A stretch of 64,000 nt of DNA from Leptonemataceae bacterium (GCA_965227295.1 OZ245742.1:4128001-4192000); one strand, 5' to 3'. Positions 23,740 through 41,631 are shown, numbered from the stretch's first letter. Made by a program: numbers and translations. The notes: generated from the letters alone by a model not told the origin.

Positions 23740-26325
23740 TCAGCCCTTCAACTTCAGCTTCTCCCCATCCAGCACCGGCGTGTACTCCGTCTCCGGATCG
23801 AACTCGCCTTTCAGGATGACCCGACTCAGCAGATTGCCGACGGCCTGCTGAATCAAACGTTTCAGCGGCCGCGCACCGAATTGCGGATCGTAGCCGCGTT
23901 CGGCGAGCCAGCTCAAAATCTTTTTGTCCGGCATCTTCACGTGCAGCCCGCTTTCCGCGGCGCGGTCGATCAGCAACTGCACGTGATGCGTTACGATCTT
24001 CTGCAACGATTCCAGGCTGATCGGGTTAAAGAAGATGATGTCGTCCAGGCGGTTCAGGAACTCCGGCTTGAACGCGCGGTGCAGTTCCTCCCGGACGCGG
24101 CCCTCTTTCTCCTCGCCGGAAAGCTCGTCGTTCATGAGATGCATGGAACCGATGTTCGACGTCATGATGATGATCGTATTCTTGAAGTCCACTAATCGCC
24201 CTTTGGCATCGGTTAAGCGACCGTCGTCGAAAATTTGCAGAAAGATGTTGAATACCTCCGGGTGCGCCTTCTCGATCTCGTCGAAGAGGATCACCTGGTA
24301 CGGCCGGCGGCGGACGGCTTCCGTCAACTGACCGCCCTCCTCGTAACCGACGTACCCCGGCGGCGCACCGATCAGTCGCGCCACGGCGTGTTTCTCCATG
24401 TACTCGGACATGTCGATGCGCACCATGGCCTGCTCATCATCAAATAGAAACTGCGAGAGCGCGCGCGCCGTTTCGGTCTTGCCGACGCCGGTGGGCCCCA
24501 GGAACAAAAAGACACCCACGGGACGGTTCGGATCGGAGAGCCCCGAGCGCGAGCGCTGGATGGCCTCGGTCACTGAAGCGAGCGCATCGTCCTGGCCCAC
24601 GACGCGGTCCTTGAGGGTATCGAGCATGCCGAGCAGACGTTCGCGCTCGCCCTGCATCATCTTCGATACGGGGATGCCCGTCCAGCGCGAGACGATCGCC
24701 GCGATGTCTTCATAAGTGACTTCTTCTTTTAAGTACTGGGACTCGCGCTCCTGGATCTTCGCTTCGAGCTGCTCCATTTCCTTCTCGCGTTGCACGATTT
24801 TGCCGTAGCGCAGCTCCGCAACCTTGTTCAGATCGCCCAGGCGCTCGAACTCTTTTTCCTGAACGCGCAGTTGATCGATCTCCTCGCGCAACTGCTTCAC
24901 GCGTTCCACCTCGGAACGTTCGGCCTCCCAGATGCCTTTCTTTTGCGCGAAGTCTTCTTCGAGGTCGGCCAGGGTCTGCTCGACGGTGGCCAGGCGTTCT
25001 TTCGAAGCCTTGTCCTTTTCCATCTTAAGAGCTTCTCGCTGTACCTTAAGCTGTTGGATGTCCTTCTGGACCCGGTCCAGTTCTTCGGGCAGGGAATCCA
25101 GTTCAATGCGCATCTTCGAACACGCCTCGTCGATCAGGTCCACCGCCTTGTCCGGAAGAAAACGATCCGTAATGTAACGGTCCGAGAGTTTCGCCGCGCC
25201 CATGACGGCGCCGTCGGTGATCTTGATGCCGTGATGCAACTCATAACGATCCTTAAGGCCGCGCAGGATCATGATCGTCTCGTCGACTCCCGGTTCGTTG
25301 ACGTAGACCGGTTGAAAACGGCGTTCGAGCGCCTGATCTTTTTCGATGTACTTCTGGTACTCTTTCAACGTGGTCGCGCCGATGCAGCGCAACTCGCCGC
25401 GGGCGAGTGCGGGTTTGATCATGTTCGAGGCGTCGAGACTGCCTTCGCTGGCACCGGCGCCCACGAGCGTATGCAGCTCGTCGACAAACAACACGATGCG
25501 TCCGTCGGACTTCTGCACTTCCGTGAGCACGGCCTTGAACCGATCCTCGAACTCGCCGCGGTACTTCGCCCCGGCGACCATGGCGCCCAGGTCGAGGGCG
25601 TAGATTTCTTTATCCAGCAATCCTTCCGGGACCTCGCCCGCCACGATCTTACCCGCCAGACCCTCGACGATGGCGGTCTTACCGACGCCGGGCTCACCGA
25701 TCAGCATGGGGTTGTTCTTCGTGCGCCGGCTTAAGACCTGCATGATTCTGCGAATCTCTTCGTCACGGCCGATCACCGGATCGAGTTTGCCCTTGCGGGC
25801 CGCGCCGTTTAAATGGATGGCGTACTTGCCGAGGGCGTCCATGGCATCCTCGGGGTTGTCGCTGTTGATGGGTTGTCCGCTGCGTAAATCGTTCACCACT
25901 TCCTCCACGGCCTGGGCGGTCAGCCCCAGACGTTCCAGTTCCGAACTCAAGCGCGCGGTGCGATCCTGCAGATACGCGAGCAGCATGTGTTCGGTGGAGA
26001 GATACTGATCTCCCCGCTTGCGCATGAGATTCTCGGCCTGGGTTAAAAGACGCCCCAGGCTCTGCGAAGCCCGCACCTCGGTGGCCGTGCCGCCGCCGCT
26101 CTGCACGCGCGGCAGAGACTGCACCGCCCCTTCGAAAAGCGGAAGCACCGAAGCGGATGTAATATCGAGACGATCAAGAACCATCGGTCCAATGCCGTCG
26201 TCCTGCCGAAAGATTTCCAACAGCAGATGCTCGGAGGTCAACTCCGGGTTACCGTTTTCCTGGGCCTGGAACTGCGCCTGGTTCAGCGCTTCGCCCGCCT
26301 TATGAGTAATTCGATCTAAAGACAT
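23740..26325 (-). CDS. clpB: ATP-dependent chaperone ClpB
   Basis: [18 protein letters not shown], coiled-coil M domain, [24 protein letters not shown]. Confidence 0.98.
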
Positions 26326-26790: not shown

Positions 26791-27393
26791 ATGGCCGAAT
26801 TCGTTACCATCCTCAAGAAACACAGCGCCAAATTCATTCTTCTTGCGACGACCGTTGTTCTCATCTACTGGGTCTGGATCGTTCCGCCGAAGTACCAGGG
26901 CTACCAGCCCGACCAACCCGTTCCCTTCTCTCACAAAATTCACGCCGGTGAAATGAACATGGACTGCCGGTTCTGTCACGCGTCGGTCGAGAAGGGACCG
27001 CATGCTTCGGTGCCGGATACCGCAACCTGCATGAAGTGTCACCAACAGGTCGCATCGGACAGCCCGTACATTCAGTACGTCCGCCAGTCCTACGAACAGG
27101 GAGTGCCCATCCGCTGGATCAAAGCGCACGACCTTCCCGACCACGCACGGTTCAGTCACAAACCGCACATCGCTTTTCTGGGCGGGCAGCCCGGAGTGGA
27201 GAACACTGCCGAGACCTGTGCCCACTGCCACGGTGATATGCGCGAAGTCGAAGGCAAGGTCGCCGTCGCCTCCGAGTTCAACATGGGCTGGTGCGTGAAC
27301 TGCCACCGCAGTTACGAAAACCAGGTCCAGGATACACCGGCCGGTTTCAACCAGGCCTCCAATCTAACCACGTGCGGCACATGCCATTATTAA
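26791..27393 (+). CDS. actA: alternative complex III pentaheme cytochrome c subunit
   Basis: One TM, GYQPDQPVPFSHKIHAG, five CxxCH motifs (CRFCH, CMKCH, CAHCH, CVNCH, CGTCH), MGWCV. Confidence 0.93.
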   Translation: MAEFVTILKKHSAKFILLATTVVLIYWVWIVPPKYQGYQPDQPVPFSHKIHAGEMNMDCRFCHASVEKGPHASVPDTATCMKCHQQVASDSPYIQYVRQSYEQGVPIRWIKAHDLPDHARFSHKPHIAFLGGQPGVENTAETCAHCHGDMREVEGKVAVASEFNMGWCVNCHRSYENQVQDTPAGFNQASNLTTCGTCHY

Positions 27394-27485
27394 TTCCTCT
27401 GTTTCGGATTGCTCCTGAATAGCCGAACCGAGGACAGCCAAGCAAAAGAGCAGCGAAGACCAACAGACGTTCAGCCTGAAATACT

Positions 27486-30400
27486 ATGAAGCATTCGCAG
27501 AAATCAGCCCAAACCGCCGGAACGTTTAAGAAATACTGGCAATCCCTCGAAGAGAAACAGGACCTGGCGCTTACCGACTGGGAGCGCCCGGAATTTCCGG
27601 AACGCCCGGAAACGTCCGCGAAGTCCGGCTTCTCGCGCCGGGACTTCCTGAAGTTCATGGGGGCCGGTGCCGTCATGGCCACCGCGGCCTGCCGCCGTCC
27701 CACCGAGCAGATCGTTCCCGCGGTCAAAGCACCGCCGGAACAGGTCCCCGGTTTGCCCACGTTCTACTCCAGCACCACCCCGGGCGGTTCCGGCATTGTC
27801 GTGCGCACCCGCGACGGACGCCCGGTAAAAATCGCCGGCAACCCCGACCATCCGCTGACCCACGGAGGTGTGACCGCCTCGGAAGTTGCATCGATCATGG
27901 ACCTCTACGATCCGGATCGTCTACGCAAGCCGGTCGTCTTCGAAGAGAAGAACGGCAAGCGCCGCAAGCAGGTCAGCACGGACAGCGCCATCGTCTCCGC
28001 GGCCACCGCCAAACTTGCGAGCGGCGAAAGTTACCTGCTCTTCACCGGTCCGGTGGACAGCCCGTCGACGCGCTCCCTCGTCGCCGATTTTCTGCGCAAG
28101 TATCCCGGCGGTCGTCACGTAGAGTTTCGTCCGGATCCGGCGCTCCGCCAGATCGCCGAAGGCCAGCGGGAATCTTACGGCCAGGACCTCGTCCCGAACT
28201 ATCGCTTCGATCGTGCCGACCTGGTCGTCTCCATTGACGGCGACTTCCTGGGCACGCTCATTCACCCGGCCTACTTTTCACACGCCTTCACTTCGAAGCG
28301 CGACCTGCGCAAGAGCAAGAAGTCCATCAACCGACTGGTGGCTTTCGAGTCCATGTTCACGCTCACCGGTTCCAACGCCGACGAACGCTACGGCATCCGT
28401 CCCGGGGACCAAACGCTCATCGCCCTCGCCATCGCATCGTACTTAATCGTTGAACAACGTCGCAGCAATCTGGCCGGCAACGCCGCCGTGCGTTCGCTGC
28501 TGCAACAGTATCGCCCGGAAACCATTGCCAACGCGCTCAAGCAAGAGAGCGGCCTGTACCGCAAGGGTCACTTCGAAGAGGTGATTGCCCGCGTCGCCGA
28601 CGAACTGTGGAACCATCGCGGTCGCAGCCTGGTCATCGGCGGTTCGCCCCTGGCCGCGACCGGCAACAACGCCGCCGCTCAAATTGCGGTGAACCTGTTA
28701 AACTCGATCCTCGGCAACGACGGAGTGACCGTGGCCTACGGGCAGCCGCTCCAGTACAGCACCGGCATCTCCGATCGCGAACTCCAGGCGGTCATCGGCG
28801 ACATCGGCAAACGCTACAAAACGATCATCCTCGCGGCCAACCCGGTCTATCATTTGCCCCAGAATCTGAATGCCCATGCGGCGCTGGCCAAGGCCGACTA
28901 CGTGCTGGCCCTGAGCGATCGCCTGGACGAAAGCGCACAACTGGCCGACGCCGTGTTGCCGCTCAGTCACTGGCTGGAAGCCTGGGGCGACAGCGAAGTC
29001 ATCGCCGGAGTACACGGCATTCGTCAGCCGGTCATCCGTCCGCTCTACAATACACTTTCACTCGAAGATCGCTTGATCCAGCTCGCCGGCGGAAACCTCG
29101 GCGGGCAGTCCACGTTCCACGACTACGTGAAGAACCGCTGGCGCGGGCTTGCGGGTGGGAAGAACTTCCGTAAGTTCTGGGTCTCCGTCCTCCAGGCCGG
29201 CTACTACGCCCCCGGCCGGTCCGCCCTGAAAGGCTCGCGTCCGGCCCGTACGTTTCGTCCGGGCGCCCTCGGCCGACTGCCGCAATTCTCGAGTGCGTCC
29301 GGTCCGGAAACGGACAGCGGCAAACTCGTCCTCGGCCTCTACTATAACGTGCAGGTTCTCGACGGCAGCGGCGCGAACAACGCCTACCGCCAGGAACTGC
29401 CCGATCCCGTGACGAAGATCGTCTGGGACAACTACGTGGCCATGTTGCCCGCCACGGCGCGCAGTCTCGGCCTGCAGCAGGGTTCGATGGTGGAACTCAC
29501 CACGAAGTCCGGCGCTAAGATGAAGCTGCCCGTGCACCTGCAGCCCGGCCTGCATCCTCAGGCGGCCCTGGTGGCCCTGGGCTACGGTCGCGAGGCGGCC
29601 GGCAAAATCGGCGACGGCGTGGGCAAGAAGGCCCTGGACATGGTCGTCATCGGCTCTGACTCACTGGCCTTCTCCGGCGACGTCGTCGAGGTCAAAGCCG
29701 CCGGTGGTCGTCATACCCTGGCCAGCACGCAAACGATCTACCGCCAGGGCTTCAACGATCAGAGCAAACGCAATCTTCCCGGCACGCCCGAGGGCGCGCA
29801 CGAGGTTCCCTTCGCCGGCTCATCTCTCTACACGGGGATGCGCGACGGCAAACACCAGCAACGCCCCATCGTCCGCGAAACGACCTGGAGCGAGTACAAA
29901 ACCGGCAAGTTCGAACTGCAACCGCCGGCCCTTTACTACCCGAAGGGCGCGGAACTCATGCCGGAGTGGAACTACAAAGATACGCGCTGGCACATGGTCA
30001 TCGACCTGAACGCCTGCACCGGTTGCGGCGCCTGCGTTACGTCGTGTAACAACGAGAACAACATCCCCATGGTCGGCCGTGATCAGGTGGCCCGGGGTCG
30101 CGAGATGCACTGGCTGCGCATCGATCGTTACTTCGTCACGACGGCGGAAGAGAGTCTGGACCAGGACGAAATCGAAGAAGCGCCGGTTATCGCGCACCAG
30201 CCGATGCTCTGTCAGCACTGTGAAAACGCACCGTGCGAAAACGTTTGTCCGGTGGCGGCCACGACGCACAACCACGAAGGTCTGAACGTCATGACCTACA
30301 ACCGCTGCGTCGGCACGCGCTATTGCGCGAACAACTGCCCTTACAAAGTACGTCGCTTTAACTGGTACGAAAACTGGAACTACATGGAAGGCCTGTGGCG

Positions 30401-30743
30401 CGGCATTCGCGACCCGCAGCATCTGGCCATGAACCCCGACGTCACCGTGCGCACGCGTGGTGTCATCGAGAAGTGCATGTTCTGTATTCAACGCATCGCG
30501 GTGGCTCGCCAGGAAAGCAAAGCCCGCGGCGAAAGCTACGTTCCGGACGGCTCCGTGGTTACGGCCTGCCAGGAAGTCTGCCCCACCGGCGGCATCAGTT
30601 TCGGAAACATCCTCGATCCGGACAGCGACGTGCAGAAGCTCAAGAAGAAAGAAGAGCAGCGCTCCTTCCAGGTCCTCGACTTCCTCGGGGTTAAACCCTC
30701 GATCACTTACCTGGCACGGGTTCGAAACAAGGGGCAGAGCTGA
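27486..30743 (+). CDS. actB: alternative complex III Tat-exported molybdopterin-like/Fe-S subunit
   Basis: KKYWQSLEE, Tat SRRDFLK plus lipobox TAAC, QELPDPVTKIVWDN, CTGCGAC, CQHCENAPC..VCP, CVGTRYCANNCPY, KCMFC..ACQEVCP. Confidence 0.95.
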   Translation: MKHSQKSAQTAGTFKKYWQSLEEKQDLALTDWERPEFPERPETSAKSGFSRRDFLKFMGAGAVMATAACRRPTEQIVPAVKAPPEQVPGLPTFYSSTTPGGSGIVVRTRDGRPVKIAGNPDHPLTHGGVTASEVASIMDLYDPDRLRKPVVFEEKNGKRRKQVSTDSAIVSAATAKLASGESYLLFTGPVDSPSTRSLVADFLRKYPGGRHVEFRPDPALRQIAEGQRESYGQDLVPNYRFDRADLVVSIDGDFLGTLIHPAYFSHAFTSKRDLRKSKKSINRLVAFESMFTLTGSNADERYGIRPGDQTLIALAIASYLIVEQRRSNLAGNAAVRSLLQQYRPETIANALKQESGLYRKGHFEEVIARVADELWNHRGRSLVIGGSPLAATGNNAAAQIAVNLLNSILGNDGVTVAYGQPLQYSTGISDRELQAVIGDIGKRYKTIILAANPVYHLPQNLNAHAALAKADYVLALSDRLDESAQLADAVLPLSHWLEAWGDSEVIAGVHGIRQPVIRPLYNTLSLEDRLIQLAGGNLGGQSTFHDYVKNRWRGLAGGKNFRKFWVSVLQAGYYAPGRSALKGSRPARTFRPGALGRLPQFSSASGPETDSGKLVLGLYYNVQVLDGSGANNAYRQELPDPVTKIVWDNYVAMLPATARSLGLQQGSMVELTTKSGAKMKLPVHLQPGLHPQAALVALGYGREAAGKIGDGVGKKALDMVVIGSDSLAFSGDVVEVKAAGGRHTLASTQTIYRQGFNDQSKRNLPGTPEGAHEVPFAGSSLYTGMRDGKHQQRPIVRETTWSEYKTGKFELQPPALYYPKGAELMPEWNYKDTRWHMVIDLNACTGCGACVTSCNNENNIPMVGRDQVARGREMHWLRIDRYFVTTAEESLDQDEIEEAPVIAHQPMLCQHCENAPCENVCPVAATTHNHEGLNVMTYNRCVGTRYCANNCPYKVRRFNWYENWNYMEGLWRGIRDPQHLAMNPDVTVRTRGVIEKCMFCIQRIAVARQESKARGESYVPDGSVVTACQEVCPTGGISFGNILDPDSDVQKLKKKEEQRSFQVLDFLGVKPSITYLARVRNKGQS

Positions 30744-30775
30744 GCTCCTAACAATAGCTTACTGGTATTTAACGC

Positions 30776-32191
30776 ATGGCACAGGACAAAGACTCGGCAT
30801 ACGAAGAAGAGTGGCGGAAGATCAAACCGCCGCTCGTAACCGGCGATAAGGTCTACAAAGACGTCAACGATGACGTCGTCGCCCCCATTGACGCGTTCCC
30901 CACGAAGTTGTGGTGGATCGCGTTCGGCATTTCGGTAGGCCTCCTCGGGCTCCTGGGCATCGAGATCGGCTGGCTGATCGCCAACGGCATGGGCGTCGTC
31001 GGTGTGAACGTTCCCATCTCCTGGGGCTCGTTCATCATCACGTTCGTTTTCTGGATCGGCATCGGTCACGCGGGAACGTTGATTTCCGCGGTCCTGTATA
31101 TCTTCCGGCAACAGTGGCGCACGGCCATCAACCGTTCCGCGGAAGCCATGACCATCTTCGCGGTCGCCTGCGCGGGTATCTTCCCGATCATCCACGTCGG
31201 TCGTCCCTGGCTGGTACTCATCTGGTTCCCGCCGCTGCCCAACGAACGCGGCACGCTGTGGCCGAACTTCCGTTCGCCGCTGCTCTGGGACCTTTTTGCA
31301 ATCTCTACTTACTTAACAATTTCGCTGGTCTTCTGGTACCTCGGCCTCGTGCCGGACCTCGCGTCCATCCGCGACCGTATCAAGGGCAGTGACTTCTGGC
31401 AGAAAATCCGCAAAAACTTCTACTCCGCCCTGTCTCTGGGCTGGGTGGGCAGCGCGCGCTCCTGGGCGCACTACGAATCCACGGCGATGATCCTCGCCGG
31501 CCTTTCGACGCCGCTCGTCCTTTCGGTGCACTCCATCGTATCCTTCGACTTTGCGACGTCGGTCATCCCGGGCTGGCACACGACTATCTTCCCGCCCTAC
31601 TTCGTCGCGGGCGCCATCTTCTCCGGCTTCGGCATGGTACTCACGCTGCTCATTCTCATGCGTGAGCTCTTTCAACTGAAAGACTACATTACCATGAAAC
31701 ACCTGGAGAACATGGCGAAAGTCTGCACACTCACGGGCATGCTCGTCGGCCTCGCCTACGGCACCGAGTTCTTCGTGGCCTGGTATTCGGGCTCCGAGCC
31801 GGAAGCCTTCGCATTCATCAACCGCGCCTTCGGTCCGTACTGGTGGGCCTACTGGATCATGATCTCGTGCAACGTGATCAGCCCGCAGATCTTCTGGTTC
31901 AAACAACTGCGCACGAACATCTACGTGCTGTGGGTGGTTTCGATCTTTATCAACATCGGTATGTGGTTCGAGCGCTTCGTGATCGTTGTCACGTCGCTGC
32001 ACCGCGACTTCCTGCCGTCCAGCTGGGACATGTATGTCATGACCATTCACGACTACGGCATCATGCTGGGCTCGTTTGGTTTGTTCTTTACGCTGTTCCT
32101 GCTGTTCTGCCGCTTTCTGCCGACCATTGCCATGGCGGAAATCAAGACGGTCATGAAATCCAAGGACGCGGCCAAGGGTTACGGACACTGA
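30776..32191 (+). CDS. actC: alternative complex III NrfD-like quinol-binding subunit
   Basis: [53 protein letters not shown]. Confidence 0.95.
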
Positions 32192-32226
32192 TTCGAACGG
32201 CCATGCGCCAACGGAACTGAGATACT

Positions 32227-33000
32227 ATGAAAGAAAAACTGGATGCATTTCTGGCCGGCCTGGCCTCGAAAATCGATGCGGCCCTCACCGCACCGGGCCT
32301 GGCGTTTTTCAATTTCGTCGAGTCCTTCTTCCAGTATACCTACCGGGAGACGGAAAAGGGCATTTACTGTCTGTTCGATACGCCGGAAAAGATGAGCAAG
32401 GCCGCGAAGGCCACGCACGCCAGAGGCTACACGAACTTCGACTGCCTCACCCCGTTCCCGGTGCACGGCCTGGAGTTCGACATGGGCCTCACGCGCTCGA
32501 AGATTCCGTACATCACGTTCTTCGCCGGCCTTACCGGCCTCGCGATTGCGTTCGGTTTGCAAACCATCGTGCACGAAAACATCATCGAACGGCCGGAGTT
32601 CCTGGCCTTCCTCGACGGCTACCCGAACATCTGGTCCTACCCGCTGAACATCGGCGGCAAACCGACGTTCGCCTGGCCGGCCATGGTACCGATTCTCTTC
32701 GAACTTACGGTCCTCATCGGCGGACACACGACGGTGGCCGGACTCATCCTGCTCGCGAAGATGTACAAACCCTTCCGCGGCGTCCTGCACCCGGACATCA
32801 CGAACGACAAATTCGCGCTCTGGATTCCGGCGGACTCCGCCCACTACGACGAGGCCGGCGTGGCCGCGTTCATGAAGGAACTCGGCGCGGACAACATTAC
32901 GAAGGTGGACGGCGAAAATCAAAGCGCGGTCTCCGCACCGGCCGTGAGCGGCGACGCTCCGGTTGCGGGTGATAGCGCCCCGGAAACCGGCAACGGCTAA
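32227..33000 (+). CDS. actD: alternative complex III subunit ActD (DUF3341)
   Basis: TPFPVHGL, YPLNIGGKP, PILFELTVL, TNDKF. Confidence 0.92.
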   Translation: MKEKLDAFLAGLASKIDAALTAPGLAFFNFVESFFQYTYRETEKGIYCLFDTPEKMSKAAKATHARGYTNFDCLTPFPVHGLEFDMGLTRSKIPYITFFAGLTGLAIAFGLQTIVHENIIERPEFLAFLDGYPNIWSYPLNIGGKPTFAWPAMVPILFELTVLIGGHTTVAGLILLAKMYKPFRGVLHPDITNDKFALWIPADSAHYDEAGVAAFMKELGADNITKVDGENQSAVSAPAVSGDAPVAGDSAPETGNG

Positions 33001-33032
33001 TTTCTATTTAACGCAAACTTACGGCGAAACAC

Positions 33033-33662
33033 ATGAAGTTATCTAAACGATACAGCAACGTCCTTCGCACCGCGGGCATCGCGGCTGCCGTGCTCTTTCT
33101 CGCGAACTGCAACTACGGCGGGAGTCTTTCCGGAATCCACTGGTTCCTGGATATGCACGACGGCTACTCCGTGGAAAGCCAGGAAGAAGACTACACGAAC
33201 CTGGACGTCAGCAAGAACGGCGCCTGGACGCGCGGCATGGACAACAGCGAAATCTGGGGCGGCCCCGGTACGGTGGTTCGCATGCCGCCGGAAGGCACAA
33301 TCCCCCGTAACAAAGAACCGTATCCCTACGAGGCCACGGACTTCGCCGCCGCCGGGGCCGAACTGCGCAACCCGCTGCCGGCAACGAAGGCCATCCTCGC
33401 CCGGGGCCAGGACCAGTACAACGCCTACTGCGCGGTGTGCCACGGTTACACCGGAAACGGCGACGGCCCGGTCACCCCACGCTTTCCGGACGTACCGAGC
33501 CTGAATTCCGAAAAGATCAAGGCCTGGAAAGACGGTGAGATCTTTCACATCATTACGATGGGCCGCGCCCGGATGTATCCGTACGCGGCGCAGGTGGAAC
33601 CGAATGATCGTTGGGCGATCATCCGATACGTACGCCTGCTTCAGGCGAACAGCGAACAGTAA
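33033..33662 (+). CDS. actE: alternative complex III monoheme cytochrome c lipoprotein
   Basis: Lipobox LANC, DMH, PPEGTIPR, CAVCH, DGEIFHIITMG..RM, DRWAI. Confidence 0.92.
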   Translation: MKLSKRYSNVLRTAGIAAAVLFLANCNYGGSLSGIHWFLDMHDGYSVESQEEDYTNLDVSKNGAWTRGMDNSEIWGGPGTVVRMPPEGTIPRNKEPYPYEATDFAAAGAELRNPLPATKAILARGQDQYNAYCAVCHGYTGNGDGPVTPRFPDVPSLNSEKIKAWKDGEIFHIITMGRARMYPYAAQVEPNDRWAIIRYVRLLQANSEQ

Positions 33663-33685
33663 ACACAGTAACATTTGGTGAAATC

Positions 33686-35062
33686 ATGGTAAGCCTTCCG
33701 GAAGAATCGAAACTCCAGTTCAAGATTCCGAAACAACTGCAAACGATCTGCCTCGCGCTGGTTGCGGTTGGTCTCGTACTCACGGTGATCCAGGCGGTGA
33801 TTGCGCTGCCCGGCGGTGACGCCCACCACGGCGGCGACCATCATGCCGAAGCGGCGGACCACGGCGACGCGGCGCATGCCGAAGACCACGCTGCTGACGA
33901 AAACGGTGATGCAGCGCATGGGGAAGATCACGCCGTGGCGGAAGAGCACGGCGAAGAGGATCACGGCGAACACCACGGCTACACGGCAAAGATGCGCTTC
34001 TTTTACTCGCTGCATCTGGCACTGTTGATCCTGATCCCGCTCAGCCTGTCGGGCGTCTACTTCTCGGCCTACAACCATCTCTCCGGTGCGGCCTGGAGCG
34101 TGACCGTCCGCCGCGTGGCGGAGAACTTCTTCTGGGGCCTGCCGGTGGCCTTCGTGTTGTTGTTGGTCATCCTCTTCCTGGGCATCGGCGACGTATTCCA
34201 TCACTGGGTCGGCAAGGCGGAATCCGACCACCTGATCGCCCACAAAGAACCGTATCTCAACGTCGGTTTCTTTACCGTTCGTAACATCATCATCTTCCTG
34301 GTATGGATGGTCTTCGGTTATCTGTTCTGGCGCTGGTCCACGAAACAGGACGAGGACGGTAAACTCGGCCGGACCAAAATGCTCGCGCGCCTGGGCGGCG
34401 GTTTCCTCGTCGTCTTCGGTCTCACATACTCGGTTTCGACCTGGGACCTGGCCATGAGCCTGTACCCGCACTGGTTCTCCACGCTGTGGGCGCTTTACAT
34501 TTTCGCGGGCCTGGCGCTCACGCTCTTCGCGACGCTCATTCTCTGGACTTACTTTCTTAAGAAAGCCGGCTACTACGGCGACACCTTCAACGAGAACCAC
34601 TTCCACGATCTCGGGAAGTTCATGTTCGGCCACACGATCTTCTGGGCCTACATGGCGGTCTCTCAGTACCTGCTCATCTGGTACGGACACATTCCCGAGG
34701 TCACGACCTACTATAAATACCGCACCACCGGCGGCTGGTACTACGTAACCTTCTTCCTGGTGATTGCGCGCTTTGCGATTCCGTTCTTCGCTCTGGTGCG
34801 TCGCGACGTGAAACGCAACTGGAACTACATGGCGGTCCTGTCCGCCTGGATCCTCTTCGGCCAGGTCCTGGATATGTACTGGATCGTCTACCCGACGCTG
34901 GACGGTCACGGAGCCTTCATCATGTTCAGCTGGCAGGAACTCGGCCCGCTGCTCATGGTAGCCGGCGCCTTCATCTACCTGGTGGCGTGGGGCCTGTCAC
35001 GGAACTCGTTGATTCCGAAAAAAGACCCGCGCCTGGAGGAATGTCTGCACTTTCACCAGTGA
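33686..35062 (+). CDS. actF: alternative complex III subunit ActF with His-rich loop
   Basis: AAWS...RRVAE, K.PYLN, WDLAMSLYPHWFST, HFHDLGK, SQYLLIWY..IPE, PKKDPRLEE. ATG 33686. Confidence 0.92.
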   Translation: MVSLPEESKLQFKIPKQLQTICLALVAVGLVLTVIQAVIALPGGDAHHGGDHHAEAADHGDAAHAEDHAADENGDAAHGEDHAVAEEHGEEDHGEHHGYTAKMRFFYSLHLALLILIPLSLSGVYFSAYNHLSGAAWSVTVRRVAENFFWGLPVAFVLLLVILFLGIGDVFHHWVGKAESDHLIAHKEPYLNVGFFTVRNIIIFLVWMVFGYLFWRWSTKQDEDGKLGRTKMLARLGGGFLVVFGLTYSVSTWDLAMSLYPHWFSTLWALYIFAGLALTLFATLILWTYFLKKAGYYGDTFNENHFHDLGKFMFGHTIFWAYMAVSQYLLIWYGHIPEVTTYYKYRTTGGWYYVTFFLVIARFAIPFFALVRRDVKRNWNYMAVLSAWILFGQVLDMYWIVYPTLDGHGAFIMFSWQELGPLLMVAGAFIYLVAWGLSRNSLIPKKDPRLEECLHFHQ

Positions 35063-35109
35063 GACGGCGCGCCGAATTGTATTCATCGAAACTCAAGCAG
35101 AGAAGCAGC

Positions 35110-36066
35110 ATGCAGAACATAAAACGAAATAGTCTGATGTTCCTGGTAACGGCCCTGGCCGCGACCGCCACGGTAGCCTGCGGCGGACCGGACGGCAGCA
35201 TCGAAGGCCATCATTCGCCGAACCCGCTGAAGGTGCCGGTCTACGAAAGCAACGCCACGGTCGTATACAAAGGCTCCATCTATTACGCCGAAGCCGGCTG
35301 TGCGAAGTGCCACGGCGTCGGCTTTGACGGCGCCGGTCCGGACGCGAGCGGCGTGCAGAGCGAAACCGGCCTCAGCGTGCCGGGTTTCCAGAGCGTTGAG
35401 ATCGCCCCGGAAAAAACGCCCCTGGCCTACTTCAAAGCCATTACCGTGGGCACCGAAAAGCTGCCGACACACTCGTACCAATCTTACACGGACCGTGGTC
35501 GCTGGGCCATGGCCCACTTTCTGTATTCACTGACCACGAAACCTTCGGGACCGAAAGCCGCGGCTCACGGAGCCCAACTGGCGAAAGACGAGCAGGCCGT
35601 GCATGCGGCCTACGCTTCGGACCGTCGTTGGGTCATGGGCTACAAACCCATCGGAGAACGTGACAAAGCACCGGAGCTGGGTTCGCTCATGAAACTCACG
35701 AGCGTCGAAGAAGAGTACGCCACGGTCAGTGTGGACGAAGCCCGCAAAGACCGTCGCGATGTCACGCATGCGGGCTACGAACTCTACGAAAACAACTGCG
35801 TCATGTGCCACGGCAAGTACGGCGAGGGCATGGCGTCGAGCAAACGCTTCGGCCTGTACCGCTGTGATGAGCGCGATCGGCAGTGCGGCGTGTTCCTTTC
35901 CACCCGGGACTTCGCCGACAGCACGGCCCTGCAGAGCGCGGGCGCCTTCTCCGAAGCTCACGCCGCGGCCAGTGACGCGGGGCAAAACCTGCGCTCATTT
36001 TCGCACTTCAGCACCGAAGAGTGGCAGGACCTTTACGACTATACACGCAAGCTGGCGGGCCGGTAA
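35110..36066 (+). CDS. diheme cytochrome c lipoprotein
   Basis: Lipobox TVAC; CAKCH and CVMCH. ATG 35110. Confidence 0.85.
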   Translation: MQNIKRNSLMFLVTALAATATVACGGPDGSIEGHHSPNPLKVPVYESNATVVYKGSIYYAEAGCAKCHGVGFDGAGPDASGVQSETGLSVPGFQSVEIAPEKTPLAYFKAITVGTEKLPTHSYQSYTDRGRWAMAHFLYSLTTKPSGPKAAAHGAQLAKDEQAVHAAYASDRRWVMGYKPIGERDKAPELGSLMKLTSVEEEYATVSVDEARKDRRDVTHAGYELYENNCVMCHGKYGEGMASSKRFGLYRCDERDRQCGVFLSTRDFADSTALQSAGAFSEAHAAASDAGQNLRSFSHFSTEEWQDLYDYTRKLAGR

Positions 36067-36103
36067 GCGCTAATATGATTCGCCTGTACGTTAAGAGACA
36101 AGC

Positions 36104-37645
36104 ATGGAACTGATCAAAAATCTCATTAAACTCGTCGAAGACATTCACTTCACCGTGAAGGCCTATCTGCTCGCCGGCTTCCTCTGGTCCCTGGCGGCAC
36201 TCGCCCTGGGCCTCTTGAACCAGGTGCAGTTCTTCGTGATCCTGGGCATTCCGCCGGAGCTGGACTACGGTTACGTGCGCCCGCTCTACACGACGGCCCT
36301 CATTTACGGCGCCCTGCTCTCGTTCTTCTTCGGAGCGTCGTACTACATTCTCAAGAATGTGACGGGCTCCAATCCGCCCCTGGCCCTGGCCGCCTGGGCG
36401 GGATTCAAGCTGCACCAGATCGCGGTGCTCTTCGGCATCATTACGATCCTGGTCGGTTACAACAGCGGCCGGGAGTACGGCGAACTCAACTGGATCGCCG
36501 ACAACCTGCTGATCATCGCACTGGTTCTGTTTCTCGTAACGACGATCCAGGCGGTGATCGCCTCGGGTAAGAAAGATGCAACCGCCCTCGTGCCGATTTC
36601 TCTGGCCGTCGTCGCCGGCGCGGGCGGACTCATCTCGTATTTCTTCGCGAACTTCGGCCTGCCGAACAGCCCGCTGACCTCCGTGGGCATTTACCGCGGC
36701 ATGATGGATGCCACGCTCCAGGAAATGTTCCGGTACGGCGTCCTGGGATACTTCATCCTGTTTCCGTGCTTCGCGATGTTGAGTTACTTCGTTCCGTCCT
36801 ACTATAAAGTCCCGCTGTACAGCACCAGCGCCGTGCGCTTTCACACTTTCGCCATGATCATCCTGCTGCCCCTGGCCGGGGCTTCAGGCCTGGCATTTTC
36901 GGCGGCGCCCGGCCTCCAGGAAACCGTCGGCGTCTTTACGGCCCTCGCTCTGGGCTTCGCGATTCTCGCCGGCGCCTTCAACGTGCGCAACACACTGACC
37001 CGTTCCGGAAAGTACTTCCGTTCGGATGCGGTGGGCCTCACGTTGCGTTGGGGTCTCTTCTTCTTGATTGCTGTCGCCGTTCTGCGTATTTTTGCGACGC
37101 CGTTCTTCATGCAGGCCGCCGTAGGCTATACCGCATACAACGTAAAAGATCTCAGCCTGGACGTGGTGACCTACGCCCTGCCCATCGCCATCGGTGTGGC
37201 TTTCATCATCACCCAGAAGATCAGCAACCGCCGCCTGTCACCTTCCGCGGCCGGATGGTTCGTCTTCCTGTTCGTTCTTGGAGCAGCATTGCTCTGGATC
37301 GGCTCCGTCGCGGGCGGTCTGCTCCAGGGCGCAAGCCAGAGCGCTCTCGTGGACGGCGGCGTGCCCGGCGTAAAGGTTCCGGAAGTCACCGACTGGACCG
37401 CAGTCCTGGTTCCGGGCAGCCTCTATCAGGGCGAAGACTTCCTCGGGAAGTTCTTAATCAGCCTGCGCGGCCTGGCGTTCTTCGGCTACTTGCTGATCGT
37501 ACTCGCCGTGCTGATTGCGAGCCTGGCCTTCTTGCTGCATCATGTAGTCTCCGGACCGGAGTACAGCGAACCCGATCTGGAAGATAAGGAACGCGCGGCA
37601 GAAGAGGCCGCCGTTGCCGGAGCGTCCGGGCACGGCGCTCATTGA
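36104..37645 (+). CDS. CcoN-like (cbb3 subunit I fold) membrane protein lacking heme/Cu ligands
   Basis: Colinear with CcoN (YG.VRPL.T, REYGELNW, G..DA..Q, YFVP...PLYS, FRSD), but the His-ligand positions are substituted. Confidence 0.85.
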   Translation: MELIKNLIKLVEDIHFTVKAYLLAGFLWSLAALALGLLNQVQFFVILGIPPELDYGYVRPLYTTALIYGALLSFFFGASYYILKNVTGSNPPLALAAWAGFKLHQIAVLFGIITILVGYNSGREYGELNWIADNLLIIALVLFLVTTIQAVIASGKKDATALVPISLAVVAGAGGLISYFFANFGLPNSPLTSVGIYRGMMDATLQEMFRYGVLGYFILFPCFAMLSYFVPSYYKVPLYSTSAVRFHTFAMIILLPLAGASGLAFSAAPGLQETVGVFTALALGFAILAGAFNVRNTLTRSGKYFRSDAVGLTLRWGLFFLIAVAVLRIFATPFFMQAAVGYTAYNVKDLSLDVVTYALPIAIGVAFIITQKISNRRLSPSAAGWFVFLFVLGAALLWIGSVAGGLLQGASQSALVDGGVPGVKVPEVTDWTAVLVPGSLYQGEDFLGKFLISLRGLAFFGYLLIVLAVLIASLAFLLHHVVSGPEYSEPDLEDKERAAEEAAVAGASGHGAH

Positions 37646-37681
37646 TCGGCACTAACTACTAACAGTAAACGACTGAATACT

Positions 37682-38374
37682 ATGAGCGAAAAACAAAATC
37701 CCATCGCAAGTTTCCTCGACGATCTCATGAGCGATCCGCTCAAGCTCGCCGGCGCAACGATCGTGCTCAGCCTGGGCATCGGTTTCGCGGCGCTGCACTT
37801 TCCGTACGAAAGCATGCCCGCCTACGGCAGTCGCCATCTCACCATGGAGAAGGCGATTGTCGTGAAAGGCCAGGAAGTCTACTATCAGGAAGGCTGCCAG
37901 TACTGTCACAGCCAGAACCTGCGTTCGCTGAACTGGGAGGTCGCCCGCTTCGCTCAATCCGGCGCGGAACAACCCTACGGTTACTTTCCGCTGCCGGAAA
38001 TGATGGAGTACAATTTCGAAATGCCCTCGCTGCGCGGCAGCAGCCGGCTCGGCCCGGATCTCTCTCGCGTTGCCGGCCGATTCGACGAGGCTCAGCTCAC
38101 TTCGCTTCTGAAAAGCACGAAGACGGACAGTCTGCGCAGCGGCCACCATCGCTACGGCCACCTCTTCCAGAGTGACGCCGGCATCAATCCGCTCTTCCTG
38201 TCCTGGCGCATTCGCATGATGATGGAATGGCGCGCGCCGCTTTCCGATGATTTTCAAAAGAGCGCGTTCGAACAGTTGAACGACAAAAGTCGCGGCGACG
38301 CCCTGGTGGCCTATCTCCTCAGCCTCGGGAAAAAACAATCCGACTTCGCCGGAAAATTCTACAATAACCAGTAA
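37682..38374 (+). CDS. CcoO-like monoheme cytochrome c
   Basis: One TM, GQEVYYQEGCQYCHSQNLR, GSSRLGPDLSRV, DALVAYLLSLG. Confidence 0.88.
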   Translation: MSEKQNPIASFLDDLMSDPLKLAGATIVLSLGIGFAALHFPYESMPAYGSRHLTMEKAIVVKGQEVYYQEGCQYCHSQNLRSLNWEVARFAQSGAEQPYGYFPLPEMMEYNFEMPSLRGSSRLGPDLSRVAGRFDEAQLTSLLKSTKTDSLRSGHHRYGHLFQSDAGINPLFLSWRIRMMMEWRAPLSDDFQKSAFEQLNDKSRGDALVAYLLSLGKKQSDFAGKFYNNQ

Positions 38375-38391
38375 TTAATAAGAGTATTGAT

Positions 38392-38856
38392 ATGAGCAAT
38401 CCATCCCCCGCAGGTGTACCTAACTGGATTCTGTTTCTGTTCGTCGGATCGCTGATCGTCGGCGGCGCTTACGGTATCTTTAATCATGTGTTTCTCGGCC
38501 CCACGCCGATCAACGCTTACGTGATTCCCACCGTGGCGGAGGTTCCGCCGCGCACGCCCGAAAACATTCAGCTCGGTGAAGAGATTTACGGACGCGCCTG
38601 CGTCGCCTGCCACGGCCAGAACCTCGAAGGCCTGGTGGGCCCGTCGCTTGCGGACGCCGAATGGTGGCACCACCAGAACGAAACGGATATGGGCAAACTC
38701 ATCATGCGCGGCATCGGAGCCGGCCAGTCCGTCTCCGGTCAGATCATGCCCGCGAAGGGCGGCGCGGCGATCAGCGACGCCGACGTCTGGCGCGTGGTGT
38801 ACTTCCTGTCCGAAAAGAACGGAACGATCGAGAAAGATCAGAACGCCGGCGAGTAA
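38392..38856 (+). CDS. short CcoP-like monoheme cytochrome c
   Basis: P.W..LF TM segment, CVACHG, GPSL.D..W, IMPA. Confidence 0.85.
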   Translation: MSNPSPAGVPNWILFLFVGSLIVGGAYGIFNHVFLGPTPINAYVIPTVAEVPPRTPENIQLGEEIYGRACVACHGQNLEGLVGPSLADAEWWHHQNETDMGKLIMRGIGAGQSVSGQIMPAKGGAAISDADVWRVVYFLSEKNGTIEKDQNAGE

Positions 38857-39624: not shown

Positions 39625-41631
39625 TCAAACCACCTCCACCCCATCCACCCGAAACTGCAACCGACTGCGCCCCGCAAAGTAACTCATCTCCAGCGACCCG
39701 TACAAATCAAACCGCCCGCGCGCATCTTTCTCCAGCGCGTCCGCGATCAACTTGCCCTGCCGCCAGGCCACGCACTCCAGATACACCGGCCCGCCGGTTA
39801 TGCTGAACTTCGCGTGCAGGCCCTGCGTCATGTACTTCACTTTCTGTAAGACGGCGCCGGCCACGCGAAACACCGGCTCCGGGTTCCGCGGGCCGAACGG
39901 TTCCAACAGCTCCAGCTCGCGTAAGAGATCGTAGGACAACTGCGCCGGCCGTACTTCAAGATGGTACTCCCGCGAGACGTTGGCCGGGGGCGGGCTCTTA
40001 ACTTCCTGCGATTGCATCTTAACGAAACCGTCCAGCAATGCCGCCTCGAGTTTCGGGATATTGTCGTACTGGATCGAAAATCCCGCCGCCTCCGGGTGCC
40101 CGCCGAACTGAATGAACAACTCCGCCGCCGTCGACAGCAGATCGAGCACGTTCACCCCACCGAAGCTTCGGGCCGAACCGCGGGCATAGTCGCCGTCGGG
40201 ATTCACGTAGACGACCGGTCGCTCGTAACGTTCGGTGAGCCGCGTGGCCACGATACCGGAAACGCCTGGCTCCAGGTCTTTGTGATAACAGAACACCAGC
40301 GGCCGCTCCACCCGCGCCGGGTCTTCGGCAATGAGTCGCGCGACGACGCCTTCGTTGCGGGCCGTGCGTTTCTTGCGTTCTTCGTTGAGTTTTACGAGTT
40401 CCGTGGCCAGCTTGCTCGCCCGCTCGCCGCGCTCCGCCGTCAATAGATCCAGGGCGAGCCGGGTGTTGCCCATGCGGCCGGCGGCATTCAACGCGGGACC
40501 AATGCTCCAGCCGAGGTCCCGACTCACGATGCGATCCTCCGGCAATCCCAGCGCGCGAATCAACGCGGCGTAACCCGGAATGTACGGACGCCGGCCGTTG
40601 CGAAAGCCGGCCAGGCCGATGCCCAGGCGCACGAGCGCGCGGTTCTCGCCGACCAACGGGACCATGTCCGTCATGATGCCGACGGCCGCCAGGTCGGCAA
40701 TGCGGCCGACGAAGTCGAGCAAGCGCCGCCGGTTCAGGATGATGCGCGTGAGCAGCAGTTTGCCCGCCGCGTGCGGATCATCCATAAAGCGAGCGCGCTC
40801 CCCCGGCCGCGGACAATACGCCGCTTCGTCCTTGAGATTGCACCATTCCCACTGCGGAATCGCCGCCTGGCCCGCGGCAAGATCCGTGAAACGTCCCAGG
40901 AAACAACCGCAGCGATACGCGAGCACGGCCGTCTCATCTTCCTGTTCCGTAAGATAGTAGACCCGTTGCCATTCCCGCGTATGCGCCAGGGCGTAGCCCA
41001 GGAGCAGCTTAAAGACCAGGCCGACCGTGGCGATCTTGCCCTCGTGCTCCAGAGAACCGACGCTCTCCGGATCCCGCATGGGATTCACGAAGGCACAGCG
41101 CTCCGGATCCGGCACGCGGTCGTGCAACTGGTGGTGATCGAGAATGATGACGGCCTTGCCGCGCTTGACCAGGGTCTCCACCTCGGGACCGTGGGAAGAC
41201 CCCATGTCCAGCAGGATGACCACATCGGCCTGACCGTCGCGGATGTCTTCGAACAGCCGGCCGGAGAGACCGTAGTCGTCGCCTTCATCGGAGACGCGCA
41301 GGTCGAGCTTTGGAGGGTCGTGCATTTCTTTCAGGAAATTGCCGAGCAACGCCGTCGACGAAACGCCGTCCACATCGCGGTCGCCCAGTACCAGAATGGA
41401 CTGCCCGTCCTCGATGGCCCGGCCGAGCACGTCCACGGCCTCCTCCAGGCCGGGGATCAACAGCGGGGAATGGAAACCCGGCTCCGGGCTGAAAAAGTCC
41501 TCCGGGTCCTGGCGGGCGGCAGCGTAGTCCGGATGCCGGACGATCTCTCGCAACGTCGGCGGGACGTGTCGGGGAAAATCCGTTCCGGACGGCGGATCGA
41601 TGGAGGGGCTGGACGCCGTAGACAATGACAT
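39625..41631 (-). CDS. recJ: single-stranded-DNA-specific exonuclease
   Basis: GDRDVDG, LDMGS, DHH, DMVPL.GENR, LNAAGRM, RGSARS, GGHPEAAG, LEPFG..NPEP. Confidence 0.93.
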   Translation of the reverse strand: MSLSTASSPSIDPPSGTDFPRHVPPTLREIVRHPDYAAARQDPEDFFSPEPGFHSPLLIPGLEEAVDVLGRAIEDGQSILVLGDRDVDGVSSTALLGNFLKEMHDPPKLDLRVSDEGDDYGLSGRLFEDIRDGQADVVILLDMGSSHGPEVETLVKRGKAVIILDHHQLHDRVPDPERCAFVNPMRDPESVGSLEHEGKIATVGLVFKLLLGYALAHTREWQRVYYLTEQEDETAVLAYRCGCFLGRFTDLAAGQAAIPQWEWCNLKDEAAYCPRPGERARFMDDPHAAGKLLLTRIILNRRRLLDFVGRIADLAAVGIMTDMVPLVGENRALVRLGIGLAGFRNGRRPYIPGYAALIRALGLPEDRIVSRDLGWSIGPALNAAGRMGNTRLALDLLTAERGERASKLATELVKLNEERKKRTARNEGVVARLIAEDPARVERPLVFCYHKDLEPGVSGIVATRLTERYERPVVYVNPDGDYARGSARSFGGVNVLDLLSTAAELFIQFGGHPEAAGFSIQYDNIPKLEAALLDGFVKMQSQEVKSPPPANVSREYHLEVRPAQLSYDLLRELELLEPFGPRNPEPVFRVAGAVLQKVKYMTQGLHAKFSITGGPVYLECVAWRQGKLIADALEKDARGRFDLYGSLEMSYFAGRSRLQFRVDGVEVV

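Follow-up and report, generated by a model that had tools for sequence, protein, structure and literature searches.

Gene content of the locus

The locus described here lies in a 64,000-nucleotide (nt) stretch of a Leptonemataceae bacterium genome (GCA_965227295.1 OZ245742.1:4128001-4192000), which we refer to as the window (G000:C1:4128001-4192000); the genome is a single contig of 5.94 Mb with a G+C content of ~60%. Between positions 26791 and 38856 on the plus strand, ten open reading frames (ORFs) encode ActA to ActF, the subunits of an alternative complex III (ACIII), followed by an ActE-like lipoprotein cytochrome c and by proteins that resemble the CcoN, CcoO, and CcoP subunits of cbb3 oxidases. 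We designate these last three proteins CcoN*, CcoO*, and CcoP* and refer to the four genes downstream of actF as the module. Our main subject is CcoN*, which lacks the heme and copper ligands of the oxidase subunit that it resembles and is therefore predicted to be incapable of reducing oxygen.

A preliminary description of the window had recognized ten closely spaced genes on one strand at this position, and our ORF calls and family matches agree with it. When revised start codons are used, the intergenic gaps are, in gene order, 92, 32, 35, 32, 23, 47, 37, 36, and 17 nt. The oxidase-type genes thus lie directly downstream of the act genes on the same strand, with gaps of 17-47 nt in that part of the cluster. 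On one side the cluster is flanked by the divergent clpB gene (23740-26325, minus strand) and on the other by the convergent recJ gene (39625-41631, minus strand). The ten genes most likely constitute one operon for an extended ACIII, from which they would be co-transcribed. Scans for regulatory signals carry no weight in this respect, since the window held 4 promoter-like sites relative to 4.2 expected from shuffled sequences, and the 25 terminator-like sites (14.6 in shuffles; standard deviation, 3.9) fell mostly inside genes.

The first gene, actA (26791-27393), encodes a pentaheme cytochrome c with five CxxCH motifs and an N-terminal transmembrane helix that matches the Cytochrome_C7 and QrcA-like families. 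ActB (27486-30743) combines a TAT signal with molybdopterin-like and 4Fe-4S domains (TAT_signal, PF00384, PF01568, and Fer4_7) and is matched by both the QrcB and QrcC models, while the NrfD-like membrane subunit ActC (30776-32191; PF03916, E = 4e-24) is 73-88% identical among related loci. ActD (32227-33000) is recognized by PF11821 (E = 8e-49; 166 bits against a cut-off of 25.7), and ActE (33033-33662) is a monoheme cytochrome c, probably a lipoprotein, with one CxxCH motif and a match to Cytochrome_CBB3 (E = 9e-14). The second large membrane subunit, ActF (33686-35062), has no Pfam match; we assigned it because of where its gene lies, because it contains many hydrophobic segments, and because one of its orthologs has a weak ActC-like match. 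It is 44-61% identical to the product of the gene that follows actE in all related loci. Although its ORF is open from 33611, translation probably starts with the ATG at 33686, given that orthologs begin MVSLPDESKL. Behind its first transmembrane helix, ActF carries a His-, Asp-, and Glu-rich loop of ~50 residues (window positions 33812-33971) that might bind metal. The long form is shared with the two loci of the same genus (L008 and L009), and in other genera the loop spans only ~10-25 residues; the ORF opening at 33611 encodes 28 His in total.

The module begins with the gene for the lipoprotein cytochrome c (35110-36066), which is diheme in this genome, with two CxxCH motifs and a lipobox Cys at position 24; its ORF opens at 34987, and the ATG at 35110 is the likely start. 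CcoN* (36104-37645) matches PF00115 with 90 bits. It is followed by CcoO* (37682-38374; FixO, E = 1e-16) and CcoP* (38392-38856; E = 1.6e-10 to the solved CcoP chain 3mk7_C), each of which is a monoheme c subunit with one CxxCH motif and a transmembrane anchor.

Loss of catalytic ligands from a conserved oxidase fold

Residues 17-419 of CcoN* (P0001) align with the CcoN chains of solved cbb3 oxidases (phmmer; E = 6e-20 for 9g6b_A and 5e-19 for 3mk7_A). With the ligands numbered as in the solved protein, every catalytic position in CcoN* has been replaced: H60 by Y62, H207 by Y211, Y251 by L255, H257 by S261, H258 by G262, H345 by D349, and H347 by S351. With reference to 3MK7, we take Y62 and S351 to occupy the positions of the heme b ligands, D349 that of the heme b3 ligand, Y211, S261, and G262 those of the CuB ligands, and L255 that of the cross-linked Tyr.

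These losses are shared by all members of the CcoN* family that we examined. An exhaustive phmmer search over 1.84 billion representative sequences returned 34 clusters at E ≤ 1e-30, with weaker scores falling in the range of ordinary CcoN, and we took as family members the 39 proteins that are at least 380 amino acids long and match at E ≤ 1e-27. An alignment of these representatives with the true CcoN of the window's genome showed that all of them (39/39) lack every one of the six His that bind heme or CuB, and the ortholog at locus L012 has no histidine at all. The position of the cross-linked Tyr is likewise variable across the family. Other features are widely shared: an Asp stands at the H345 position in 35 of the 39 members, and both Glu residues of the EYxE (EYGE) loop motif of cbb3 oxidases are retained in almost all of them. 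The equivalog models for the catalytic enzyme score CcoN* and CcoO* far below their cut-offs (88.1 bits against 583 for TIGR00780, ccoN; 51.9 bits against 200.65 for TIGR00781, ccoO). Since all of the heme and copper ligands have been lost, CcoN* should be unable to reduce oxygen, and the cco-like module is, as judged from its sequence, not a heme-copper oxidase. Two central claims of the preliminary description, that the subunit I homolog is devoid of metal ligands and that this cbb3-derived module cannot be an oxidase, are thus upheld both by the alignment of the window protein to solved CcoN and by the composition of the family.

At the former heme b3 site, R328 and D349 (window positions ~37085 and ~37148) are 87% and 92% conserved, respectively, and may form a salt bridge. 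Both residues are missing from the two most divergent orthologs (L017 and L018). Locus L018, which carries the operon, belongs to a metagenome-assembled genome of a Leptonema sp.

Despite the loss of its ligands, CcoN* is predicted to keep the 12-transmembrane-helix subunit I fold of cbb3-type heme-copper oxidases. The 39-sequence alignment yielded an AlphaFold2 model with a mean predicted local distance difference test (pLDDT) score of 91.5 and a predicted template modeling score of 0.93, and its best Foldseek match was 3mk7_A (E = 5.5e-17; template modeling [TM] scores, 0.81/0.89; root mean square deviation, 3.0 Å), followed by 8smr_E and 9g83_t. The model also contains an extra C-terminal helix.

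The genes encoding CcoN* are not pseudogenes. Reading frames are unbroken across ~20 genera, and the ratio of nonsynonymous to synonymous substitution rates (dN/dS), estimated by the Nei-Gojobori method from five pairs of related loci, was 0.035-0.075. CcoN* is therefore under strong purifying selection, as are ActB (0.030-0.109) and ActF (0.022-0.134) in the same five pairs; the corresponding range for ActC was 0.007-0.037. These ratios are rough because dS exceeds 1 in several pairs, and the two least saturated pairs gave values of 0.075 and 0.035 for CcoN*. We oriented the helices of the model in the canonical N-in topology to locate the 32 positions with a conservation of 85% or more in CcoN*, and these were distributed very unevenly across the membrane. 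Periplasmic loops account for 12 of them and the periplasmic halves of helices for 16; another 4 fall in cytoplasmic halves, and no cytoplasmic loop contains one.

The heme c motifs of all three cytochromes encoded in the module are intact. In CcoO*, the C72-x-x-C75-H76 motif is invariant in 10/10 orthologs. The canonical position of the axial Met (MPAY motif) is occupied by His, Tyr, Asn, or Ile, and the next residue, His156, is His in all ten, such that the CcoO* heme is probably ligated by two His residues. CcoP* has an invariant CxxCH motif and an invariant Met119-Pro120 pair (11/11 sequences), and its architecture of one transmembrane helix and one heme is like that of the lineage's true CcoP, which has 181 amino acids. 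In the lipoprotein, the lipobox Cys24 and the first CxxCH motif are present in 10/10 orthologs and a second heme domain is present in 5/10. Its first domain is ActE-like, and the protein shares 26% identity with the ActE encoded in the window; in this alignment, a Leu is aligned with an ActE Met that we take to be the axial ligand of ActE, and an invariant His121 follows three residues later. Profile matches to solved structures comprised 6h5l_B (E = 3.5e-13) and the ACIII subunit ActE (6btm_E; E = 2.6e-5). The best solved relative of domain 1 (35110-35650), ahead of ACIII ActE, is thus 6h5l_B, a protein annotated as a "conserved hypothetical cytochrome protein."

Distribution, origin, and respiratory context of the module

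A scan of one genome per species identified 11 related loci in genomes labeled Leptospirales, Leptospiraceae, Leptonemataceae, or Leptonema and in two metagenome-assembled genomes labeled Spirochaetaceae. The ten-gene order was identical in all 10 loci that are sufficiently long, and the eleventh is a 2.3-kb contig that holds only the genes for CcoN*, CcoO*, and CcoP*. Five further loci with weaker matches to CcoN* also showed the full ten-gene order, which brings the total to 15/15.

We then considered the window's own GTDB family, which comprises 42 genomes in 21 genera. The CcoN* profile matched at E ≤ 1e-25 in 41 of these genomes, and the match reached at least 290 bits in 32. In eight others, the match was weaker (157-190 bits), and in each case it lay directly beside a match to the lipoprotein. 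One genome (58% complete) had a sole match of 152 bits, which falls in the range of true CcoN, and one (0.9 Mb, 76% complete) had no match to the CcoN* profile. Most genomes of the family yielded a second match of ~130-160 bits, and the true CcoN of the window's genome scores 158 bits. The lipoprotein was found in 38 of the 42 genomes. None of 109 genomes from the sister family, which belongs to the same order, yielded the lipoprotein. Single matches to the CcoN profile were obtained in 69 of 75 genomes of that family; all four of those examined were true ccoNOP-ccoG clusters, as were both of the matches examined in two more distant genomes. The ACIII operon stops at actF in the three sister-family genomes examined and in the one genome examined from another family. 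The module is thus present in ~40 of the 42 genomes of the window's own family and, within the order, is confined to that family. The suggestion in the preliminary description that the arrangement of actF, cytochrome c, ccoN*, ccoO, and ccoP be surveyed across the Leptospiraceae was therefore partly rewarded: the synteny is conserved in 15/15 loci and is not unique to this genome, but it belongs to the window's own family rather than to the Leptospira-like family in general.

We consider CcoN* to be derived from a cbb3 oxidase because its best sequence and fold matches are to CcoN, its neighbor CcoO* is of the FixO type, and the genes keep the N-O-P order. In a maximum-likelihood tree of 41 proteins, from which the long-branch sequences P0045 and P0048 were left out, the CcoN* family formed a single clade with 100/100 support on a long branch. 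This clade did not lie beside the true CcoN proteins of the Leptospirales. Since a tree joining the two was not rejected by an approximately unbiased (AU) test (P = 0.114; difference in lnL, 11.1), the data are compatible both with a duplication within the order and with another origin.

Ligand-poor relatives of CcoN also occur outside this family. Of the 53 weaker phmmer matches of at least 400 amino acids, 37 are missing one or more of the six His when aligned pairwise to true CcoN, and eight proteins of this kind are scattered over at least four positions in the tree among CcoNs with a full set of ligands. Ligand-poor cbb3-like proteins therefore seem to have arisen several times. Five proteins (P0070, P0073, P0069, P0074, and P0107) are CcoN-CcoO(-CcoP) fusions of 651-999 amino acids without most or all of the six His, and they show that the heme domain of CcoO can be attached to a ligand-poor CcoN. 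A search with P0093 returned cbb3 proteins of Melainabacteria, Vampirovibrionales, and Acidobacteria. Word-indexed homolog searches with P0001 and with the family profile each recovered on the order of 10-12 proteins, and a protein atlas returned generic COX1 clusters only.

The remainder of the respiratory chain is encoded elsewhere in the genome. Three genes carry PF00115, and ccoN* is the only one of them inside the window. The A-type CoxA lies at 3.66 Mb within a coxB-coxA-coxC-subunit IV cluster (caa3), and a true cbb3 cluster (L006; G000:C1:3073314-3081700) contains ccoN, ccoO, ccoP, ccoG, and a copper-type P-type ATPase gene. The ccoP gene of this cluster is short; its monoheme product of 181 amino acids is unusual relative to the diheme CcoP of solved enzymes. 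The genes for CcoG, CoxA, CoxB, and CoxC were located only around 3.07 and 3.66 Mb, outside the window (4.128-4.192 Mb), so the earlier statement that it holds no other oxidase genes and no ccoG assembly gene is correct. The genome contains one ACIII operon, and cytochrome b was not found in it by a search whose control was positive in 8 of 14 reference genomes. Given this combination, ACIII is the only recognizable link between quinol and both oxidases. Apart from these respiratory genes, we observed that the segment 12001-14000 of the window has a G+C content of 0.498, relative to ~0.60 elsewhere in the window.

Possible roles of the module and their implications

We lean toward the interpretation that the module is a redox-dead scaffold bearing a heme c relay for ACIII. 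This reading best accounts for the intact heme c sites, the periplasm-skewed conservation of CcoN*, the strict placement of the module behind actF, and the location of the true oxidases elsewhere. According to this model, ActA to ActF would function as the usual quinol:cytochrome c oxidoreductase, and the last four genes would encode a cbb3 oxidase derivative that gave up oxygen chemistry. CcoN*, a putative 12- to 13-helix membrane protein devoid of heme b, heme b3, and CuB, would act as the membrane scaffold, and its conserved periplasmic face would hold CcoO* (one heme c), CcoP* (one heme c with His/Met ligation), and the lipoprotein (one or two hemes c), with CcoN*, CcoO*, and CcoP* presumably assembling as their counterparts do in cbb3. 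The three or four hemes c of the module may then take electrons from the heme wire of ActA and ActE, if electrons flow in that direction, and pass them to likely acceptors such as the cbb3 and caa3 terminal oxidases or other periplasmic acceptors. A scaffold that presents c-type hemes had already been offered in the preliminary description, and it fits both the skewed conservation of CcoN* and the intact motifs of the cytochromes (CcoO*, CcoP*, and lipoprotein domain 1), whereas nothing in our data points specifically to the ion-conducting or regulatory subunits that were offered beside it.

Several observations sit uneasily with a scaffold and relay. The model does not explain why the R328/D349 pair should be conserved at a former heme site. 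Over long distances CcoN* is the fastest-evolving protein of the operon, with 21-58% identity relative to 73-88% for ActC, and this rapid divergence could mean that its structural role is a loose one. The His156 residue that we propose as the second CcoO* ligand is offset by one residue from the canonical Met position, and the CcoO* model is too poor for the ligand to be checked (mean pLDDT, 64.8; below 50 around the heme site). Moreover, since no heme b lies below the CcoO* heme, that heme has no obvious onward partner, and the path of the relay is conjectural.

Whether the module touches ACIII is a separate matter, and here we are slightly more reserved. The ACIII-caa3 and ACIII-aa3 supercomplexes (PMC5928083 and PMC8552683) make contact between the two plausible by analogy, and the module could, on that basis, be physically attached to ACIII.

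Since CcoN* is under strong purifying selection, it could alternatively be an ion-conducting or energy-coupling subunit that provides a proton or sodium path and thereby adds to the charge translocation of ACIII. Several polar residues close to the former metal sites are conserved (D349, 92%; R328, 87%; D202; and Q206), and ACIII itself includes cofactor-free membrane subunits with proposed proton paths (PMC5928083). However, only 4 of the 32 conserved positions lie in cytoplasmic helix halves and none lie in cytoplasmic loops; because the conserved positions cluster on the periplasmic side, no conserved polar chain spanning the membrane is apparent. In addition, D202 and Q206 occur in true CcoN as well, and the absence of both R328 and D349 from the two most divergent orthologs argues against a path built around them. 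We consequently regard ion conduction as very unlikely. A broader proposal, which we consider improbable though a little less so, is that cofactor-less cbb3 shells constitute a recurrent, undescribed class of respiratory subunit and that the CcoN-like protein has become a permanent part of ACIII, in which, besides anchoring an extra heme c exit wire, it would contribute to energy coupling around R328/D349, either by ion conduction or by conformational coupling. Were this proposal true, ACIII in these bacteria would represent a ten-subunit quinol:cytochrome c oxidoreductase of a new type.

The module might instead belong with the true cbb3 and caa3 oxidases, as an assembly or regulatory pseudo-subunit, or form a stand-alone membrane cytochrome c complex that is merely co-regulated with ACIII. 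The second CcoN-range match in most genomes of the family indicates that a true cbb3 oxidase usually coexists with the module, and the lack of a bc1 complex in the window's genome would make both oxidases dependent on ACIII. Nevertheless, the module always lies behind actF (15/15 loci) and never adjoins true ccoNOP-ccoG in the loci examined, and the sister family possesses true cbb3 and ACIII without it, which implies that true cbb3 does not need the module. An accessory of this kind thus appears unlikely. We give far less credence to the idea that the module has retained reductase activity toward O2, NO, or another substrate, with its metals held by ligands other than His. Tyr residues do stand at two of the former His positions (Y62 and Y211), and tyrosine can ligate heme in some proteins, but these positions vary freely in the family (Phe, Tyr, Ser, Gly, Val, Leu, Met, or Ala at the first; Thr, Ser, Asn, Ile, Met, or Phe at the second), no alternative ligand set is conserved, one ortholog is entirely without His, and no ccoGHIS-type assembly genes lie beside the module. 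Finally, the disappearance of the catalytic residues and the standing of CcoN* as the most divergent protein of the operon might suggest that the module is a nonfunctional remnant of an earlier ACIII-cbb3 operon in the course of being lost. Intact frames in ~20 genera, the low dN/dS values, the invariant heme motifs, and the single old clade that the family forms (100/100 support) bring this explanation close to refutation.

A redox-dead scaffold for ACIII would combine features of systems that are already known. The module resembles the cbb3 enzymes of Pseudomonas stutzeri (3MK7) and Pseudomonas aeruginosa (8SMR) in its N-O-P gene order, its subunit I fold (TM scores of 0.81-0.89), its EYGE loop, its FixO-type CcoO with a CxxCH motif, and its CcoP-like cytochrome c with a transmembrane anchor. 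Unlike cbb3, it lacks the six His, the cross-linked Tyr, the axial Met of CcoO at its canonical position, and adjoining ccoGHIS genes, and it has acquired an extra C-terminal helix in CcoN* and an additional lipoprotein cytochrome while scoring below the equivalog cut-offs. According to PMC5928083, oxidase gene clusters frequently come after those for ACIII, and supercomplexes of ACIII with caa3 and with aa3 oxidases are known. The locus is also similar to those of Rhodothermus marinus (ACIII-caa3) and Flavobacterium johnsoniae (ACIII-aa3), in that oxidase-type genes directly follow actABCDEF and ACIII probably donates the electrons (PMC5928083 and PMC8552683). In those two species, however, the partner is a working A-type oxidase, whereas the putative partner in this locus is a C-type derivative that has lost its catalytic center, and the working oxidases are encoded elsewhere. 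In full-text literature searches that cover few subscription journals, we found no published description of a ligand-less CcoN beside ACIII.

A parallel for the loss itself is found within ACIII. The ActB1 domain has the fold of a molybdopterin enzyme and lacks the cofactor; as proposed for CcoN*, a catalytic chassis has been kept as a structural part after its cofactor was lost. The two differ in their folds and in that ActB1 is soluble whereas CcoN* is membrane embedded. The homology of ActB1 to complex iron-sulfur molybdoenzymes is noted in PMC5928083.

The locus also has a practical consequence for the interpretation of genomes. CcoN* proteins appear in databases under the name "cbb3-type cytochrome c oxidase subunit I," so genome-based inferences of high-affinity oxygen respiration over-count the oxidases of these bacteria. 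For the biology of the family, CcoN* would be a clear case of a heme-copper oxidase core that is maintained under strong selection after losing all of its redox chemistry, in parallel with the cofactor-free modules of ACIII. It may also provide a handle on how ACIII hands over electrons to its partners, a matter that is described as unsettled in PMC8552683.

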